A stretch of DNA of 63,269 nt, filler included, from Rhabdomonas costata (GCA_019059605.1; 43 parts of 43 records of this genome joined end to end with filler, not necessarily neighbours in it); one strand, 5' to 3'; positions 14,448 to 47,967 are shown, numbered from the whole stretch's first letter. Program-made: numbers and translations. The notes: generated by a model from the sequence alone, not told the origin.

Positions 14448-14620
14448 TGGTTCATTTCAGCCTTCGGCCTTGCCTTCTCTTCCCCTTTCTTTCTGTTCTT
14501 TCTGGATGGACCAGATGCCTCGACAAGTGGATCCCCTCCTTTTGTCGAGGCATCTGGTCCATCCAGAAAGAACAGAAAGAAAGGGGAAGAGAAGGCAAGG
14601 CCGAAGGCTGAAATGAACCA
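14448..14620. repeat. Terminal fold-back inverted repeat (79-bp perfect arms, 15-nt loop), probable library or amplification artefact
   Basis: 14448-14526 is the exact reverse complement of 14542-14620, directly at the contig end. Confidence 0.9.
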
Positions 14621-17412: not shown

Positions 17413-17864
17413 TTCTTTTTATGTTGTCTTTTTATGTTCAGCAACGTTCACGGAATTATGACGCACCCGCATACACAGAGTTGTCGTCGCTAACCAACAG
17501 CTGGCGGCCGCCGCACAGGGGTAGCCCAAACACTTGTCGAATAACCAAACGCATGAATACGGACACCCCCCCCCNNNNNNNNNNNNNNNNNNNNNNNNNN
17601 NNNNNNNNNNNNNNNNNNTTAATTAATTAANNNNNNNNNNNNNNNNNNNNNNNNNNNNNNNNNNNNNNNNNNNNGGGGTTTGGTAAGAGAAATCGCAACG
17701 GCGGTGACCGAGGGAGGAAGGGCGACCCTGCAGGCGGATACGGAACCCGAAAATGGGGGTACTTGGTACTTGGTAATTGGGCATACAACATAGGACAGAC
17801 ATGCGCATTTTCCAAATCCAGGGAGAAGCTAACACACACAACACAACACACACACACACACAAC

Positions 17865-18681
17865 CTTTTGCTTCTCCCCGTCGACCTCGAAAAAGGCCAG
17901 CTCCCCCTTGCGGTAGATCAGCCTGCCCCCCACAGGGGCGCGGTGAGGGCAGTGCCGCTGAGGAGGTTTCACAAAAAAGCACTCCGATGCTAATTGAGAA
18001 CGTATTATGGAGAGAATCGATTGGTGGCGTCGGTTTTCCATTATCATTGGATCATTGAAAAATGTGTCCACACATGTGGATCAGCCGATGTTAGTGTGGT
18101 TGGTGAAGACTCATGACACGTCAAGGCATGGAAGAACGGTATGGAAATGGACCTTGGTATATCTTTTTTCACTGAAAGCCATATCATCCAGCGAGTATTT
18201 GCTGCGCAGAAGAAAAGCAAAGTTTGTGATCTGAAAACAGTGGGAAAAAATTGTGTTATTGCGGGGCTGGAGTATTGAACTGTAGCGTTAACGTCTGATA
18301 GGGTCAAACATTTCACTATCAAAGCGGCCCAAAAAGTTTTAAACTGAATTCTTTTGCTCACCTAAATCCAAAAAATATTGGCTTGAGAATCAGAAGGCGT
18401 TTCAGCTGTAAGCCACCGAAGCGCGTGATACAGAGGATGTCTTCAATTCACGTGGAACTGGGGGAGTATATGGGGGAGTAGATTGCATCGATGACCCGGA
18501 TAGGGGTCGGGGTTTCCACGCAGAAAAAGGCAAGGACCTGATGCGTGGCAAAGGTGCGGGCCTTCCGCATGTACAGCAGGCACCACTCGCAGACCAGCAG
18601 CCATGGCTGGCCCCGGGTAAGGCTCTCGGGGTACGGGGAGTAGTACCACGCGTCCACCTCCCACCGCCCGAACACAATCCA
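17865..18681 (-). CDS. MYST-family histone acetyltransferase (C2HC zinc-finger region); exons 18681-18538 and 17957-17865
   Basis: IVFGRWEVDAWYYSPYP...LLVCEWCLLYM...HQ|RHCPHRAPVGGRLIYRKGELAFFEVDGEKQK. Confidence 0.93.
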
Positions 18682-26534: not shown

Positions 26535-27516
26535 GACGGGCACGGGCACGTGACGAATCTGTTTAGGACAGCCCACCACGTCGAAAGGAAAGATTCCAAT
26601 CACACAAACCACACGGGTGAAGCAACACAGCCGCGTTGAGCATAAGGACCTGCTTCACAGGCACAGTCCGGGGCACGGGCACCGTGACGACCTTCTCCAC
26701 AATCTGCTCCTGGATCGTCGGGACGTCGCGGTAGCGCACGCACTCAACTGGGACGGGCACGGGCACAGTCTGCGGCACGCGGACCTCCACAGGGGTGGGC
26801 ACGCACCTGTCGACGATGCGCTGGACCGTCTGTTGAACCCACACACGTTAGTGAGTCAAAGGCCGCTGACGCAGTCTCAGAAGGAATAAACGAAAGCGCA
26901 AGAGAGTGCACACCCGGGTCACGGGGCAGGGCACGGGCCGGGTGACGACCTTCTGCACGGGGACGGTCACCACCACCTGCTGAGGGCAAGGCACCTGGAC
27001 GGGGCAGTCCACTGTGCGCTCCACCACCTTCTGGACGTTGTAGGGCACGGGAACCTCCACAACCTTTTTGACACAGAAGGGTTTTCCAAGCAACGCATAA
27101 AGGCATGTGCTTTGCACGCAACGAAGCCACTCAGATACTCTAACTTTACCTTGTCCACGTTGAAGGGCTGGGGCACCTCCACGACCTTCTGCACGGGATA
27201 GGGCACCTGGACGCACTGCCGCACCTTGACCTCGACCGGGACGTCCACCTGGCGGCAGACGACCTTCTGCACCGGGTAGGGCACCTGCCGGCACACAACC
27301 TTCTCCACAGGGTACGGCTGAGGCACCTGCACCACCCTCTCCACGGGGTAGGGCTGAGGAACGTCAACGAACTTCTGCACCGGGTAGGGCACCTGCACGC
27401 ACTGCCGCACGCGCTTTTCCACAGGGTAGGGCACGGGGACGCACTTCTCCACACAGACCTCCACGGGGACCGGGACGTCAACCTGGCGGCAGACCTCGAC
27501 GGGGACCGGGACAGTC
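26535..27516 (-). CDS. Articulin-like pellicle/epiplasm protein; exons 27516-27150, 27064-26915, 26829-26650 and 26558-about 26535
   Basis: Tandem roughly 12-aa VPVPxxVEKxV repeats; three GT-AG introns keep frame, one with a CACTAAC branch-point-like motif. Confidence 0.92.
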
Positions 27517-27822
27517 CTGGAAATGAACAGAAACACCATCGGGCATTCTGCAGCAAGCAACAGTTGCACAGAAGAAAGACGAAGAAGGAAGAAAAAACAG
27601 GAGGGGAAAATTGTTGCTGGCGTATCGTCGTGCAGGTTCCAAGCCTTTGAAAACACCCGCAGCATTCCGGCTCACTGCGGTGCCTGGGCTCCACCCTCGG
27701 TATGCAAAGCAGACCGGGCCGAACACTTAGTTTCCAAGTCTAAAAATGAGAAAAGTGTATCCCAAAGTCGAAAATGCCCCGAAATAGGCCAAAATGTGAC
27801 CTTCAAGGGGCAAGATCTCGGC

Positions 27823-32912: not shown

Positions 32913-33659
32913 GTATGTAGGGAGCCCTCCCCCCGCGGGTCATTAGGTCATTTTTCACTTCAAGTTCCACTCAAGTCCCTCCATACATTGAACATCAAGT
33001 CCGAAAAGCAAATTTCGAGAAAAAAATTCGGTTTTTGTGGGAATTCACCAAGTGAGTTGGCACTTGAGCTGCATGTGAGTTGGCGCCTAAGTTGGACCTG
33101 TTGGGCACTCCCCCCTCTCCCCAGATGGGTCTCATACCCGCTGGTCGAAACCCGCGTTTCCAGCAGAAGTCGCGAAAACGCAGGCTAAAAAAGTTATCTT
33201 TTCTTGTATATGCCAATGTTTTCCCGATGTGCTTGTGACATTATGTGTAGTTTTTCGCTTCTCACTTTTGACATAAAAACGCCATTTTGGCTAAGCTTGG
33301 AAATGGAGCCACGCAGATGCGTAATTTGTCATTTGTCCGTCCTTCAGTGCTCGTGTCCACCGTTGACCCGCCTCCTCGTTTGGACAGCATCTCAGGGTTG
33401 CAGCCCGGGAACTCTGCGCCGGGTGGCGCTTAACCTTTCAGTCCCATTTCACGGTTTCTTTAATTCCTGCGGATACGCAGTCGTCTTGCATTGTAATTAA
33501 CGAGGGGTTTTTTCTCAGGCTTCTTCCACAATTTTCCCGCGTAGGTCTATGCACCGCTTTTCCTCCGTTTTATACGCTCCTTCGTTGGGTGGTTCGAACA
33601 CCTTCCCACCGAGTACGGCTCTATCGAGTTTAACATCGACCGCTGGTCGTGCTGTGGGA

Positions 33660-33784
33660 TGCTGCAGGTCACCGTTTCTCAGCAAGGCAAGGGAGGTCCT
33701 TGGCATGATGCTCCTGGGAGATTCTACCATGAGCATCATGCCAAGGACCTCCCTTGCCTTGCTGAGAAACGGTGACCTGCAGCA
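33660..33784. repeat. Terminal fold-back inverted repeat (54-bp arms), probable artefact
   Basis: 33660-33713 is the reverse complement of 33731-33784 at the contig end. Confidence 0.9.
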
Positions 33785-35649
33785 CCCCACACCNNNNNNN
33801 NNNNNNNNNNNNNNNNNNNNNNNNNNNNNNNNNNNNNTTAATTAATTAANNNNNNNNNNNNNNNNNNNNNNNNNNNNNNNNNNNNNNNNNNNNGTGTTTG
33901 TTGTAAAACATGTGCTGCTTGCACACGCTGCGGGCCTTGAAAAGAAATTGCCATTGAGCGCGCAATGGGTTATAATTTCATTCGTTTTGTGAACTATCCT
34001 TCATGGCTGATGGTTGTTTATCGCTGTAAAAATTGAGCTTGGGTAGTAATTTGATTACGGGATTAAAACAAAAATCCACTCCAAGAGGATCGTTTTGTAA
34101 CGGCAGAGCTTTCCTTTTGGTACTCCCCCAGGGCAGGTGTCCCATAACCCGTTTAAATTGCGGGGGGCTCCTCCCGTGTCTGCTGCCGTGGGGACTTTGA
34201 GGGACAAAGGTTCGTGGACAGAGTGGCTATCATCCGGGGCCAGGTGTGTCAAAGCCTGGCCCCATTCTAGGAGACCATGGATTCTCTCTCTAGCTTGTTC
34301 CGTTCCGGAAGGGCCTTGAAATAGAATACTACCAAGACAACCGAAAGCCGGCACAGCACAACGAGCACGAGGTCACGGGCACAGTTGTGTCGAATTTTAT
34401 CCCGGTTCCTTGCCGAGAATCTGGCGAAAGGTGGTATCAGGTTTGCAAGCCGGTTATTGACACCCCCCCTGAAGGGCGATTGGTTCAGATGCGCGGTCCC
34501 CGCTTGGCTAACGACTGAAAGCACGTTGGGCAGCCACCACCGTGCATTCTCGGAAGCTAAACTCGTTCATTCAAACCGCCAACAATAAACGACAAAAACG
34601 ACATATTTTTTCGAAAAAGAAAAGAATCTGGTGAGCGTGGAGATCAATAAGCCTTACCCCTAATCCGAGTACAAACTACTTCAGGGTGTAAAACCGTTGG
34701 TTTGATTTCATCGGTATTTCCAATGCAGAAAACCCGCTGTGTAATGTCTGCGGACTTGCCGCTTTAGCGTAGCATGGGACGCAAGGAGAGTCCAGGGGTA
34801 TGGATTTTAGAAGTGTTATGCAATGACATCGAGTGGACTTTATTTGCCTCAACAGAGATTTGGATGGGAGGTGCCGGGATTGGTTATGTCAAGCCATCAC
34901 ACACACACACACTCTCTCTCTTGTTTGTGCTGCACACCGAGAGCATTTCCGGCGCTTTGGGATAAGAAACACTGCCAAGGAGACAGGATTAAAGTTAAGA
35001 AACATTCCCCGTTTGGCACAGCCCTCAGTATATAATCCGAACAAAAAAAGGAACCACCTTCCACACAGAAGGTGTGACAAAGTCAAAGTGCGCATAGAGG
35101 AAACCTGCATGCACCCCAACAGAGGCCAATTGGCAACGCAAACGCCTTCCCCCTCTTCCCCCTCCTCCGGCTTGACTCACACTCACAAGAATGCCTTGCA
35201 ACGCAACGCCCACCGCACAAAACAACACAAACTCACAACGTGACGCAACGCAACGCAACACAACCCCNNNNNNNNNNNNNNNNNNNNNNNNNNNNNNNNN
35301 NNNNNNNNNNNTTAATTAATTAANNNNNNNNNNNNNNNNNNNNNNNNNNNNNNNNNNNNNNNNNNNNTTTCACCCCTGGCCGGTCTGCATTGATTTTCTG
35401 GTTTGGGAGGGTTTGGGGGTTTTGAAATCTTTGGCTGACATTGAGTTGAACTTTGAGGATTTTGACCTCTTCGCCGGAAGGAAATTACAGTGAACATTGA
35501 ATTGATTTGGACTTTTTCGGTCCACATTGAACTTTGAGGTTTGTGCAACCCTGCTTCGAGAGCGCCATGTCTTGTTTCGGCTGTTTTTTTTGTGAGGGTA
35601 ATTGTTGTTGTTGTTGACAGTTCTTTCTCTTATCGTTGTTCTGCCAGGG

Positions 35650-45260: not shown

Positions 45261-46185
45261 GTGCGCATCCCTCGCCGATATGACGAGTAACCCCGCAAAG
45301 GAGCGAGGGCCCAGGCAACTCAATGAGCATGGGACCTCAGTAGGTTCAAGCCTTCGATTGAAGTGCAGAGATAAAGTTATGATGAAGCGATCTCAGCCCA
45401 AAAGAGAGTGGTTGTCCCCCTTCGCTTCACTCTACGCCGAGAATCTTTTGGTCAGCACCCGCTTAACTTCTGCCCGTAGGTGTTTCTTTTGTCGAAATCC
45501 GGCGGCACTGAATGTAATTTGCTCTCTGTGCCGCTTCTGTACTTTGCCCAGCTCCCCACCCCTGTACCACAACCCACNNNNNNNNNNNNNNNNNNNNNNN
45601 NNNNNNNNNNNNNNNNNNNNNTTAATTAATTAANNNNNNNNNNNNNNNNNNNNNNNNNNNNNNNNNNNNNNNNNNNNGTGTCAGGGCTTGTGCTGTGGGT
45701 CGATGTGTCGTTGCTGTTAGGTCCGTGGGGTTCATGCTGCGTTGGTCTGTGAGTCGAAGGGAGAGTGTGGGCAATGTCAAGCTGAGTACCATGGTCTGTG
45801 TGTTAGTGTGTGTTCTTGGGCTCTGTGTGTGGTTGGAGGGTGGGTCGTGGCATTTCGTGTCTGAGGTTCTGTTGGTTGCTGGTGGTGTGTGTCAGTGCTT
45901 TGTCAGTGCTTGTGTGTGTCAGTGTCAGAGGGGCTACGTGTCAGGATCTTGGGGTTACGTGTGAGGGTTTCGTGTTCTTGGCTTCTGGGTGTCATGGTTT
46001 GTGTCTTTCTGTGTCAAGGGCTGTATCCTGGTCTCATGATGTTGGTGTGTAGGGCTTCGTGTTCTTGTTTCTTGGGGTGTGGTGGTTGGGGTTGGGGTTG
46101 GTGAGGTAAGGCTAAGGGTAAGCGTATCAGCATGACTCTAGGGGAATAGAGATGCTAAGATGCTAAGATGACCCTAGATGCCAAG

Positions 46186-46957
46186 ATGCCCTCCTACTCC
46201 GCTACGCTGCGTTCCTTGCACCTGATGCCTTTACTCCTCCTACTACGGATGGATCGCTACGCACCCATCCTTCGTGTATTCTATGCGTAGGGTATACTCC
46301 GATGCATGACATCCTCCACTTGGGGACACGTACCACTCTCTACTACGGCATGTCGACAAGCACCATGCCTTCGTTCCTTCCACCCTCTATGCCTTCAGAG
46401 TGAGAAAGAGGGTGTAGGGATGATGCATGACTGTACTATGCTTGTGTGTTGGATGCTTGAGGGGTGTTTCTTGCCTTCTTGAGGTCACGGTTTCTGAGGG
46501 TAGGGTGGATTTTAGGACGTAGGGGCATTTCTATCTGCGATGCCCTCTACTACGGATGGCTATGAGGGGATTCCTACCGCAGGTGCCTTGACCTCTACTT
46601 CTACGGGCATGCCTCCTGACGTCGACATGCCCTCCGATACCCTAGTGATGGAATACCCGATGCAAGGCACAAGGGGACCCAGATAAAAGGTGTGATGTCG
46701 GTCGATGCCTACGTCATCTCCCTCCTAAATGTGATGGTTCACTCACTCCACCAGCCTAAGCTGCTTACGTTCGTTCACCAAGACGTCAGCATTCTCAGGT
46801 CTTCGAATGCTTCCTCTGTATGATGGTTCGTTACGCCACCATAAGGTGCCTCCACTCACAGAACCCGAACTCAGAAGACAGAAGAAGGAACTCAGAACTC
46901 AGACGTCAGGATGCTCAGGCCTTCGCATCCTTCCTCTGATGTTGGTTCGTTCCGCCG
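46186..46957. repeat. Non-coding array of short hairpin cassettes (two families)
   Basis: CTACTAC-stem-loop-stem-TTCG units at 46237, 46337 and 46593; AGACGTC-stem-loop-stem-TCCTCTG units at 46781 and 46901; no ORF of 60 aa or more in any frame. Confidence 0.8.
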
Positions 46958-47967
46958 CTAATTTGATTTGGTGATTTGCCAGGATACCATCAACAACCGT
47001 GAATAACTCCCCATCCCTGCAAATGCAGGGAAACAAAAAAACCCACACACCNNNNNNNNNNNNNNNNNNNNNNNNNNNNNNNNNNNNNNNNNNNNTTAAT
47101 TAATTAANNNNNNNNNNNNNNNNNNNNNNNNNNNNNNNNNNNNNNNNNNNNGGGGTTGGGGGCGTCGGGGTCGTCCAGCGCCACCCCTCACTGCCCGGGC
47201 TGTGCGAAGCCCCTGTGCCCTCGGGGAGAGGCCTGCGGGTTCTCGCTGCAGAGCCATGTGCTGCAGCACTGCCACACCGCGGCGCACCCGGAGTTTCCGT
47301 GCCGCGCTGCCAAGCACTGAGTAGGGCTTTCGGTGACCTTGTCTATAGAGAAGACAAATGGAGAGAGAGGGGGGGGACACTGTTCCTGTGCTGTCTCGGA
47401 CTCAGTCGTTGAAGGCTCTTCTTTTGAATGCCTTGCTGCAGACTCGTTTGATGCTACGACATCCGCAAACATTTGCATTTGGCAACGTTCCCCCTCTCCA
47501 CACAGATATTGAGCTCACAAATAAGTCGCTCGATGTGCTTAGTAGGTGGATGCGCACCGCTGCGTGAGTCCCAGGGGATGCAATGCAAAGAAAAATATTG
47601 GGTTGTTATCGTTAGAAAGCAATCCGGGATCAACGCATAATGTTCACAGAGAAAGTGTGCTCCCAATGGGGGCAATGTGTCCCTGATGCCCCCCATCGCC
47701 AAACATTTTTAAGGAGCAGCATATCCAATTTCTCAGTTGGAACGTGGCTACAAAGCCGAACACACCAAAATTGAGGTTCAATTTTGTCTAAACTCGTCCT
47801 TTTTCTCTCATCCTGCCATTCCCCTTTTGTTATACCCTGGTCGCTACCTTGTCAGCTGCTGGGTTTGTGTTCCGCTGCTAATGGCCGATGCTGCACTTGA
47901 GGCGAGCCGGTCCACCTGTGAAAGCATCTTTAGGTATAATGGTGCAGCACTTCGGCCGTAAACCGTT

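Follow-up and report, generated by a model that had tools for sequence, protein, structure and literature searches.

Confined to one contig of the window, the whole 63,269-base stretch of DNA analysed here, is a small array of cassettes in which constant flanks enclose short, perfectly paired stems. The region contains a repeat structure, enriched short words, short palindromes in excess that pair perfectly, and hairpin arms with compensated changes. These cassettes may well be the remains of a lineage-specific minisatellite that has decayed, with its palindromes kept by template switching and with no RNA product. The best reading of the setting is that the repeat lies in non-coding nuclear DNA and was recovered as a single whole-genome-amplification fragment, and in our view the array most probably serves no sequence-specific function in the cell.

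The window is a composite and comprises 43 unrelated contigs, each of 1,367-1,386 bases, joined by spacers that consist of N runs around a TTAATTAATTAA linker (for example, 45578-45677 and 47052-47151). The cassettes are confined to the contig at 45678-47051, and the repeat and its hairpins are known from this single 1.37-kb contig. At 52% G+C the contig resembles its neighbours, and no open reading frame longer than 81 codons and free of spacer was found in it. In compressibility it shares first place among the 43 with one other contig, and it ranks second in the number of 7-mers occurring at least three times (34). Three mutually unrelated short tandem repeats, TTGGGG-like, AGATGCYA and CAGAACT, share the same 1.4 kb, and AGATGCYA shows in its simplest form the GATGC word found throughout the region. 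The features of the contig are listed below, with U0 to U4 denoting the units of the array.

45678-46071, + strand: G/T-rich non-coding stretch, internally repetitive, upstream of the cassettes (A 9.4%, C 14.0%, G 38.7%, T 37.9%); direct repeats D4-D8.
46072-46103, + strand: G/T-only run of 32 nt, TTGGGG-like, 4.7 copies; the longest internal G/T run in the window.
46150-46192, + strand: 8-nt tandem repeat AGATGCYA, about 5 copies (direct repeat D3; Tandem Repeats Finder).
46186-46236, + strand: U0, a relic of ~50 nt that has leader CTCCTACTCC and a decayed 3' arm but has lost its 5' arm (direct repeat D17; U0-U3 alignment).
46237-46336, + strand: U1, 100 nt, with the cassette at 46237-46275 and its hairpin GGATGG/CCATCC at 46247-46270, then GATGCATGAC (alignment).
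46337-46445, + strand: U2, with the cassette at 46337-46374 and its hairpin GGCATG/CATGCC at 46347-46369, then GATGCATGAC (alignment to U1).
46523-46545, + strand: orphan hairpin GGGCAT-11 nt-ATGCCC, lacking a CTACTAC leader (hairpin search).
46540-46592, + strand: U3, a relic of ~50 nt with leader CTACTACGG at 46547, 5' arm GGATGG and a decayed 3' arm (CCTACC).
46593-46700, + strand: U4, with a variant cassette at 46593-46636 and its hairpin GGGCATG/CATGCCC at 46605-46632 (alignment to U1).
46781-46837, + strand: first copy of a neighbouring repeat, AGACGTCAG, with hairpin AGCATTC-TCAGGTCTTC-GAATGCT at 46788-46811 (direct repeats D2 and D12; self-BLAST).
46859-46903, + strand: 7-nt tandem repeat CAGAACT, 6.6 copies, between the two copies of the neighbouring repeat (Tandem Repeats Finder).
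46901-46956, + strand: second copy of the neighbouring repeat, with hairpin AGGATGC-TCAGGCCTTC-GCATCCT at 46908-46931; 86% identical over 57 nt to the first copy.
47031-47051, + strand: C/A-only run of 21 nt at the 3' end of the contig, read as the complement of an amplification primer.

The best long-range inverted match within the contig spans 31 nt at 74%. The possibility that the G/T-rich first third is a transition-hypermutated copy of the hairpin-bearing part was rejected, the best match in purine/pyrimidine code scoring 23 within a shuffled range of 19-29. A scan with bacterial promoter and terminator models returned 0 and 0, a result that carries no information for DNA of a eukaryote.

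Three cassettes had been quoted in a preliminary description of this DNA, and all of its strings are present at the positions given there, the hairpins having been re-found independently. They are CTCCTACTAC-GGATGG-12 nt-CCATCC-TTCGT at 46237-46275, TCTCTACTAC-GGCATG-11 nt-CATGCC-TTCGT at 46337-46374, exactly 100 nt 3' of the first, and CTCTACTTCTAC-GGGCATG-14 nt-CATGCCC-TCCG at 46593-46636; leader-only relics lie at about 46191 and 46547. Copies of the word CTACTACGG stand at 46240, 46340 and 46547 on the + strand, and neither strand of the other 42 contigs has one. Searching the whole window for a leader (one mismatch allowed) joined to a perfect stem of 5 bp or more with a loop of 8-16 nt returned exactly the three cassettes and nothing further.

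The cassettes exceed chance. With perfect hairpins counted as stems of at least 6 bp with loops of 3-20 nt, six are found in 46186-46640 against a mean of 1.27 in dinucleotide shuffles, none of the 500 shuffles reaching six; over 46111-47051 there are nine against 3.33, with 5 of 500 shuffles as high. All nine hairpins of the contig fall within 46247-47031, and a total of nine per whole contig falls among the 0-13 counted in the other contigs (mean 5.7). The excess is local owing to the base composition of the first third of the contig (A 9.4%, C 14%), which is G/T-rich and unable to pair with itself. Besides the shuffled controls, the preliminary description had looked to recurrence of the motif elsewhere; by these two criteria the outcome is split, since the shuffles do not attain the observed number of hairpins and the motif was met with in no other contig (0 of 42 in the window, and none by strict pattern in metagenome or viral contigs).

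Homology between the units extends beyond the hairpin, and the region is therefore a degenerate tandem repeat. In gapped local alignment U1 and U2 reach a score of 53, where the best of 300 shuffles gives 39; U0 and U3 reach 34.5, where the best of 300 gives 29; and U1 and U4 reach 43.5, a value as high being found in one of 300 shuffles. U1 and U2 are adjacent homologous units that abut head to tail, the arrangement that defines a tandem repeat. The order common to the units is a leader CTCTACTACGG, the hairpin, T(T/C)CG, CTATGC/GTAGGG and then (C)GATGCA(T/A)G(A/G)C, with a mean column identity among units of ~45%. Further hairpins accompany this plan: one of 7 bp in U1, overlapping the first, at 46257-46290, and one of 8 bp in U2 at 46381-46414, made by an insertion of ~20 nt relative to U1. 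In U4 the hairpin is followed by ATACCCGATGCA...GGGGAC, as in U1. Judged by these alignments, the cassettes are the conserved core of about three full units of ~100 nt, plus two relics of ~50 nt, rather than free-standing modules.

Tandem Repeats Finder does not report the ~100-nt period in this contig, and self-BLAST of the contig detects only the 46781/46901 pair and none of the cassettes. We attribute this to the unit identity of ~45%, which would be too low for both programs; Tandem Repeats Finder usually fails on arrays with less than about 70% likeness between copies.

Under the minisatellite reading, the repeat would be an old one, and its ancestral unit of ~100 nt would have consisted of a leader CTCTACTACGG, a short GGCAT/ATGCC palindrome, TTCGT, a variable stretch and then GATGCATGAC. 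It would have been duplicated head to tail about three times, leaving in addition two half-length relics, and the copies would then have diverged. The region may have grown as a few short words (GATGCC and CTACG) were multiplied by slippage and duplication, a hairpin being expected to form wherever an inverted copy of the dominant word sits 11-14 nt upstream of a direct copy. The arms would have stayed complementary through replication template switching that homogenises quasi-palindromes, and not through an RNA. Unit homology, compressibility, the clustering of short repeats, the enrichment of words and the presence of these words in most of the hairpin stems all support the minisatellite reading, as does the finding of no open reading frame longer than 81 codons, Rfam family, tRNA or C/D-box candidate. 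Two of the five units, U0 and U3, have no hairpin, which fits decay.

The words themselves are 10- to 18-fold enriched in the contig and strand-biased: GATGC occurs 12 times against 1.14 expected (12 on the + strand, 1 on the - strand), ATGCC 9 times against 0.83 (9 on the + strand, 4 inverted) and CTACG 7 times against 0.39. The density of GATGC and ATGCC words noted in the preliminary description is thus borne out, at about 10-fold on the + strand. Words of the GATGC/ATGCC/CTACG type are found in six of the nine hairpin stems here, compared with 4 of 240 hairpins in the other 42 contigs, and two of those four are long foldback artefacts. The stems had been described as differing in sequence. 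They are perfectly paired, as stated, but three of the four share a GGCAT/ATGCC core (GGCATG, GGGCAT and GGGCATG, each with its complement), so that their variability was overstated. The loops of U1 and U2 have TCG...GCAC in common.

Such a distribution also raises the possibility, which we regard as doubtful though worth serious weight, that the words are clustered sites for a DNA-binding protein with sequence specificity, (G)ATGCC(Y), mostly in one orientation, serving as monomer sites and GGGCATG-N11-14-CATGCCC as dimer sites. Settings that would suit such a cluster include a regulatory or insulator module, the subrepeats of a ribosomal DNA spacer and the subterminal repeats of a DNA transposon. 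The stem word ATGCC fills the region in unpaired form as well, and it and GATGC are frequent in direct orientation; unpaired direct copies fit an array of sites because an RNA hairpin has no need of them. Across the four hairpins the arm sequences are conserved, but three of them have loops that show no relationship, and arrays of short motifs in direct and inverted orientation are typical of the subterminal regions of transposons. Against these points, neither a terminal inverted repeat nor a target-site duplication nor a transposase is visible in the 1.4 kb, where the 31-nt match is the best inverted one, the word array is absent from every other contig of the window, and no rRNA was found anywhere in the window by Rfam at gathering score. 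We know of no protein for the GATGC/ATGCC word. A p53-type response element, for which the half-site pattern is RRRCWWGYYY with two decamers 0-13 bp apart, was considered separately: one perfect decamer (46605) and one matching at 9 of 10 positions (46623) occur, in U4 only. This candidate was rejected, as the 43 contigs together hold 14 perfect occurrences, so that there is no enrichment at the locus.

All three full units have perfect stems of 6-7 bp despite the column identity of ~45%. Between U1 (GGATGG/CCATCC) and U2 (GGCATG/CATGCC) both arms have changed in a compensated manner, and both hairpins pair perfectly. The preliminary description therefore holds in its structural part: the array is small, its flanks are constant and its stems have remained paired. 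Pairing has been kept better than simple decay predicts, and this needs explaining.

The cleanest covariation in the contig is that of the neighbouring repeat pair, whose first copy continues after its hairpin with CTTCCTCTG...TGGTTCGTT. This pair, situated a little beyond the coordinates given for the cassettes, probably corresponds to the first cassette family of the preliminary description. Four of the eight differences in 57 nt sit in the 7-bp stem and give two compensatory pairs (C-G to G-C and U-A to G-C, 46788 versus 46908 hairpin), whereas the loop (TCAGGYCTTC) is the same at 9 of 10 positions and the flanks at 9 of 9 on each side. By our own arithmetic, the chance that four random substitutions in 14 stem positions would do so is about 0.002. 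An alignment of the pair, which consists of two sequences only, predicts 16 pairs, 3 of them changed on both sides. This pattern is what selection on a structure looks like, and it counts against plain decay.

Candidate causes of the maintained pairing are selection, acting either on a structure or on a site bound by a dimer, and template switching at quasi-palindromes. According to passages in PMC8794818 and PMC8604942, template switching creates and maintains perfect hairpin arms and produces compensated changes of several bases in the absence of selection. Every stem is purely Watson-Crick, with no wobble pair, and so the elements are palindromes on both strands; this, together with the loss of the hairpin in two of the five units, favours a neutral reading at the DNA level. 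The conserved loop and flanks of the 46788/46908 pair favour function. That the five hairpins with fixed flanks (the three CTACTAC cassettes and those at 46788 and 46908) are selected functional elements, representing either a new RNA class or recognition or dimer sites, seems to us unlikely; were it so, they could be tandem small RNAs, more probably from the - strand, or sites recognised by a mobile element or DNA-binding protein not yet characterised, in a eukaryote that has been poorly sampled.

Likewise improbable is a reading in which one strand, more probably the - strand if either, gives rise to tandem small structured RNAs or RNA-processing hairpins. In its favour, the stems are kept through changes on both arms, and the constant flanks could act as processing signals. 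On the - strand, folding energy is mildly low (z = -2.09, with 1 of 100 shuffles as low), and a G-U pair makes the U1 and U4 stems 2 bp longer. The same strand has 21 stems of at least 7 bp when G-U pairs are admitted, against a shuffled mean of 10.5 (0 of 60), six of the 21 lying in the primer-derived end; this wobble-stem excess is a weak sign of RNA structure. The + strand folds no better than its shuffles (z = -0.63 and -0.62), the stems are just 6-7 bp and free of wobble pairs, and the hairpin is lost in U0 and U3. RNAalifold on a MAFFT alignment of the three cassettes yields no common pair, the arms being out of register, and strict patterns for both repeat families match nothing in metagenome contigs and nothing in viral contigs.

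Searches for known RNAs gave no support to the small-RNA cluster that had been suggested for this DNA. None of 4227 Rfam families reaches its gathering score anywhere in the window, and ARAGORN finds no tRNA in it. When Rfam 15 was run on the contig at E values up to 10, only sub-threshold matches to the long non-coding RNAs HOTAIRM1_3 (18 bits versus 37) and CLRN1-AS1 (11.1 versus 48) were returned, and these are chance matches. Box C/D snoRNAs were sought as a C box RUGAUGA near the 5' end and a D box CUGA towards the 3' end, closed by a terminal stem of 4 bp or more; the four weak candidates on the + strand, with none on the - strand, have terminal stems of 2-3 bp, none combines a canonical C box with the required stem, and all were rejected.

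Consistent with amplification of the library before sequencing, a G/T-only run of at least 9 nt stands at the 5' start of 33 of the 43 contigs and a C/A-only run of at least 9 nt at the 3' end of 38, with no contig showing either in the reverse orientation. Three contigs (4423, 19148 and 56005) retain GTGTTTGG directly ahead of the G/T run. A whole-genome-amplification primer printed in section 19 of PMC10781638 reads 5'-TGTGTTGGGTGTGTTTGGKKKKKKKKKKNN-3', that is, TGTGTTGGGTGTGTTTGG-K10-NN, and the match of the terminal runs and of the retained GTGTTTGG to this K10NN primer identifies the contigs as single amplified fragments, probably ordered by length. Since they are unrelated, distances or 'arrays' that extend across spacers mean nothing, and any finding that crosses a spacer, or that takes the window as a single molecule, needs to be read again. 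The practical lesson is to judge each finding inside its own 1.4 kb.

Several other observations touch on these low-complexity ends. The contig at 45678-47051 lacks the usual primer-type run at its 5' end, where only 4 G/T bases are present. C/A-only runs of 66, 40 and 35 nt, which include (CA)n microsatellites, lie at 51418-51483, 52415-52454 and 17831-17865 in other contigs, indicating that G/T- and C/A-rich low-complexity DNA is either common in the genome or favoured by the G/T primer. The B-chromosome marker primer 182B1-F, as given in Table 1 of PMC4991083, starts with the 12-mer that ends the amplification primer and continues with G/T-rich bases; amplification-primer sequence may have entered the design of that marker.

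An amplified library could in principle have generated the array itself, as chimeric or polymerase-made sequence rather than genomic DNA, through whole-genome amplification or assembly. Apart from the primer-like ends, two contigs terminate in long, near-perfect foldback inverted repeats (14448-14620, 84 nt at 98% with a 5-nt gap; 33653-33791, 69 nt at 96% with a 1-nt gap), which are probably snap-back chimeras from amplification or assembly. The cassette contig itself has the internal 32-nt G/T run at 46072, which could be natural or could mark where two amplified fragments became joined at a primer site. The cassettes, however, lie wholly between this run and the C/A run at the 3' end, and would be untouched by a junction at 46072. 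The units have diverged, whereas duplication in vitro would give identical copies, and the long, terminal foldbacks elsewhere are unlike palindromes of 6-7 bp. An artefactual origin of the array is therefore very unlikely.

The gene content of the other contigs is that of a eukaryote with introns. Parts of eukaryotic domains, each about the size of an exon, are encoded there (dynein AAA lid, UQ_con, C2, BRCT, WSC and HAD hydrolase), and 6 of the 148 open reading frames of at least 110 aa in the window pass the curated Pfam cut-off, each covering only part of its profile; among the ten frames of at least 200 aa in the window, none has a Pfam family. Protein searches with three open reading frames from other contigs gave best identities of 52% (WSC), 50% (VP-repeat frame) and 46% (HAD), with named matches scattered over fungi, insects, molluscs and rotifers. 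The VP-repeat frame, 234 aa on the - strand at 26967-27671, is packed with VPVPVEV/PYPVEK-type repeats and belongs to no Pfam family. Its best database matches are repeat proteins 45-50% identical, the named ones mostly from insects and many unnamed; being of low complexity, it says little about taxonomy.

Short palindromes with constant flanks do occur in organellar and extrachromosomal genomes, and this general resemblance underlay the earlier proposal that the cassettes are replication or recombination signals of such DNA. That origin is scarcely credible here. The window holds many unrelated molecules, not one, its gene pieces are exon-sized and of nuclear type, and the cassette contig matches its nuclear-type neighbours at 52% G+C and carries no gene. 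By blastn the contig has no match in 72,556 plasmids or 50,697 phage records. In viral contigs the strict cassette motif finds nothing, and the loose flank pattern finds 67 matches, none of which (0 of 67) forms a hairpin.

In prokaryote genomes, the loose flank pattern occurs at no fewer than 120 loci. Among the matches listed, 3 of 120 have at least four further stem pairs, two of these three looking like the same sequence in two Aquiluna assemblies. As matches to the loose flanks so rarely form a hairpin, the flanks define no family in the prokaryote and viral collections, and we read these matches as chance and used them only as a null. A separate regularity was seen in the prokaryote matches to CTCTACTACGG-N16-22-CCTTCGT: among those listed, the spacer is 17 or 20 nt in 97 of 120, so that total lengths differ by multiples of three, which suggests a conserved coding motif unrelated to the cassettes.

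As it stands, the array matters little. Its palindromes, staying paired amid the decay of the repeat, nonetheless form a test case for selection on structure versus a mutational bias from template switching. Were the units conserved and transcribed in the source organism, they would represent a new family of small RNAs or protein sites in a lineage without a close sequenced relative.

Bacterial REP/BIME elements resemble the array in being short palindromes with conserved flanks, clustered in non-coding DNA; they differ in that the source here is a eukaryote and the prokaryote flank matches are chance only (3 of 120 with a hairpin, among the matches listed). Eukaryotic polycistronic snoRNA clusters share with it tandem units of ~100 nt, conserved short boxes and a local hairpin, but here there are no C/D boxes with a terminal stem and no Rfam match. 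Elements of the En/Spm type carry arrays of a 12-bp motif in their subterminal regions. As in those arrays, one short word recurs many times within a few hundred bases, mostly direct and in part inverted, whereas terminal inverted repeats, a target-site duplication and a transposase were not seen in the 1.4 kb.

Quasi-palindromes made by template switching, as described in passages of PMC8794818 and PMC8604942, show short perfect inverted repeats with arms that change together, like those found here; the events themselves are described in those passages, while here a template switch is proposed from the present arms only. Degenerate minisatellites, or cryptically simple DNA, are alike in having homologous head-to-tail units of ~100 nt, clustered short repeats and over-represented words, together with a lack of coding or known-RNA content. 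The array departs from them in having only about three full units, each of which has kept its palindrome perfect despite an identity of ~45%.
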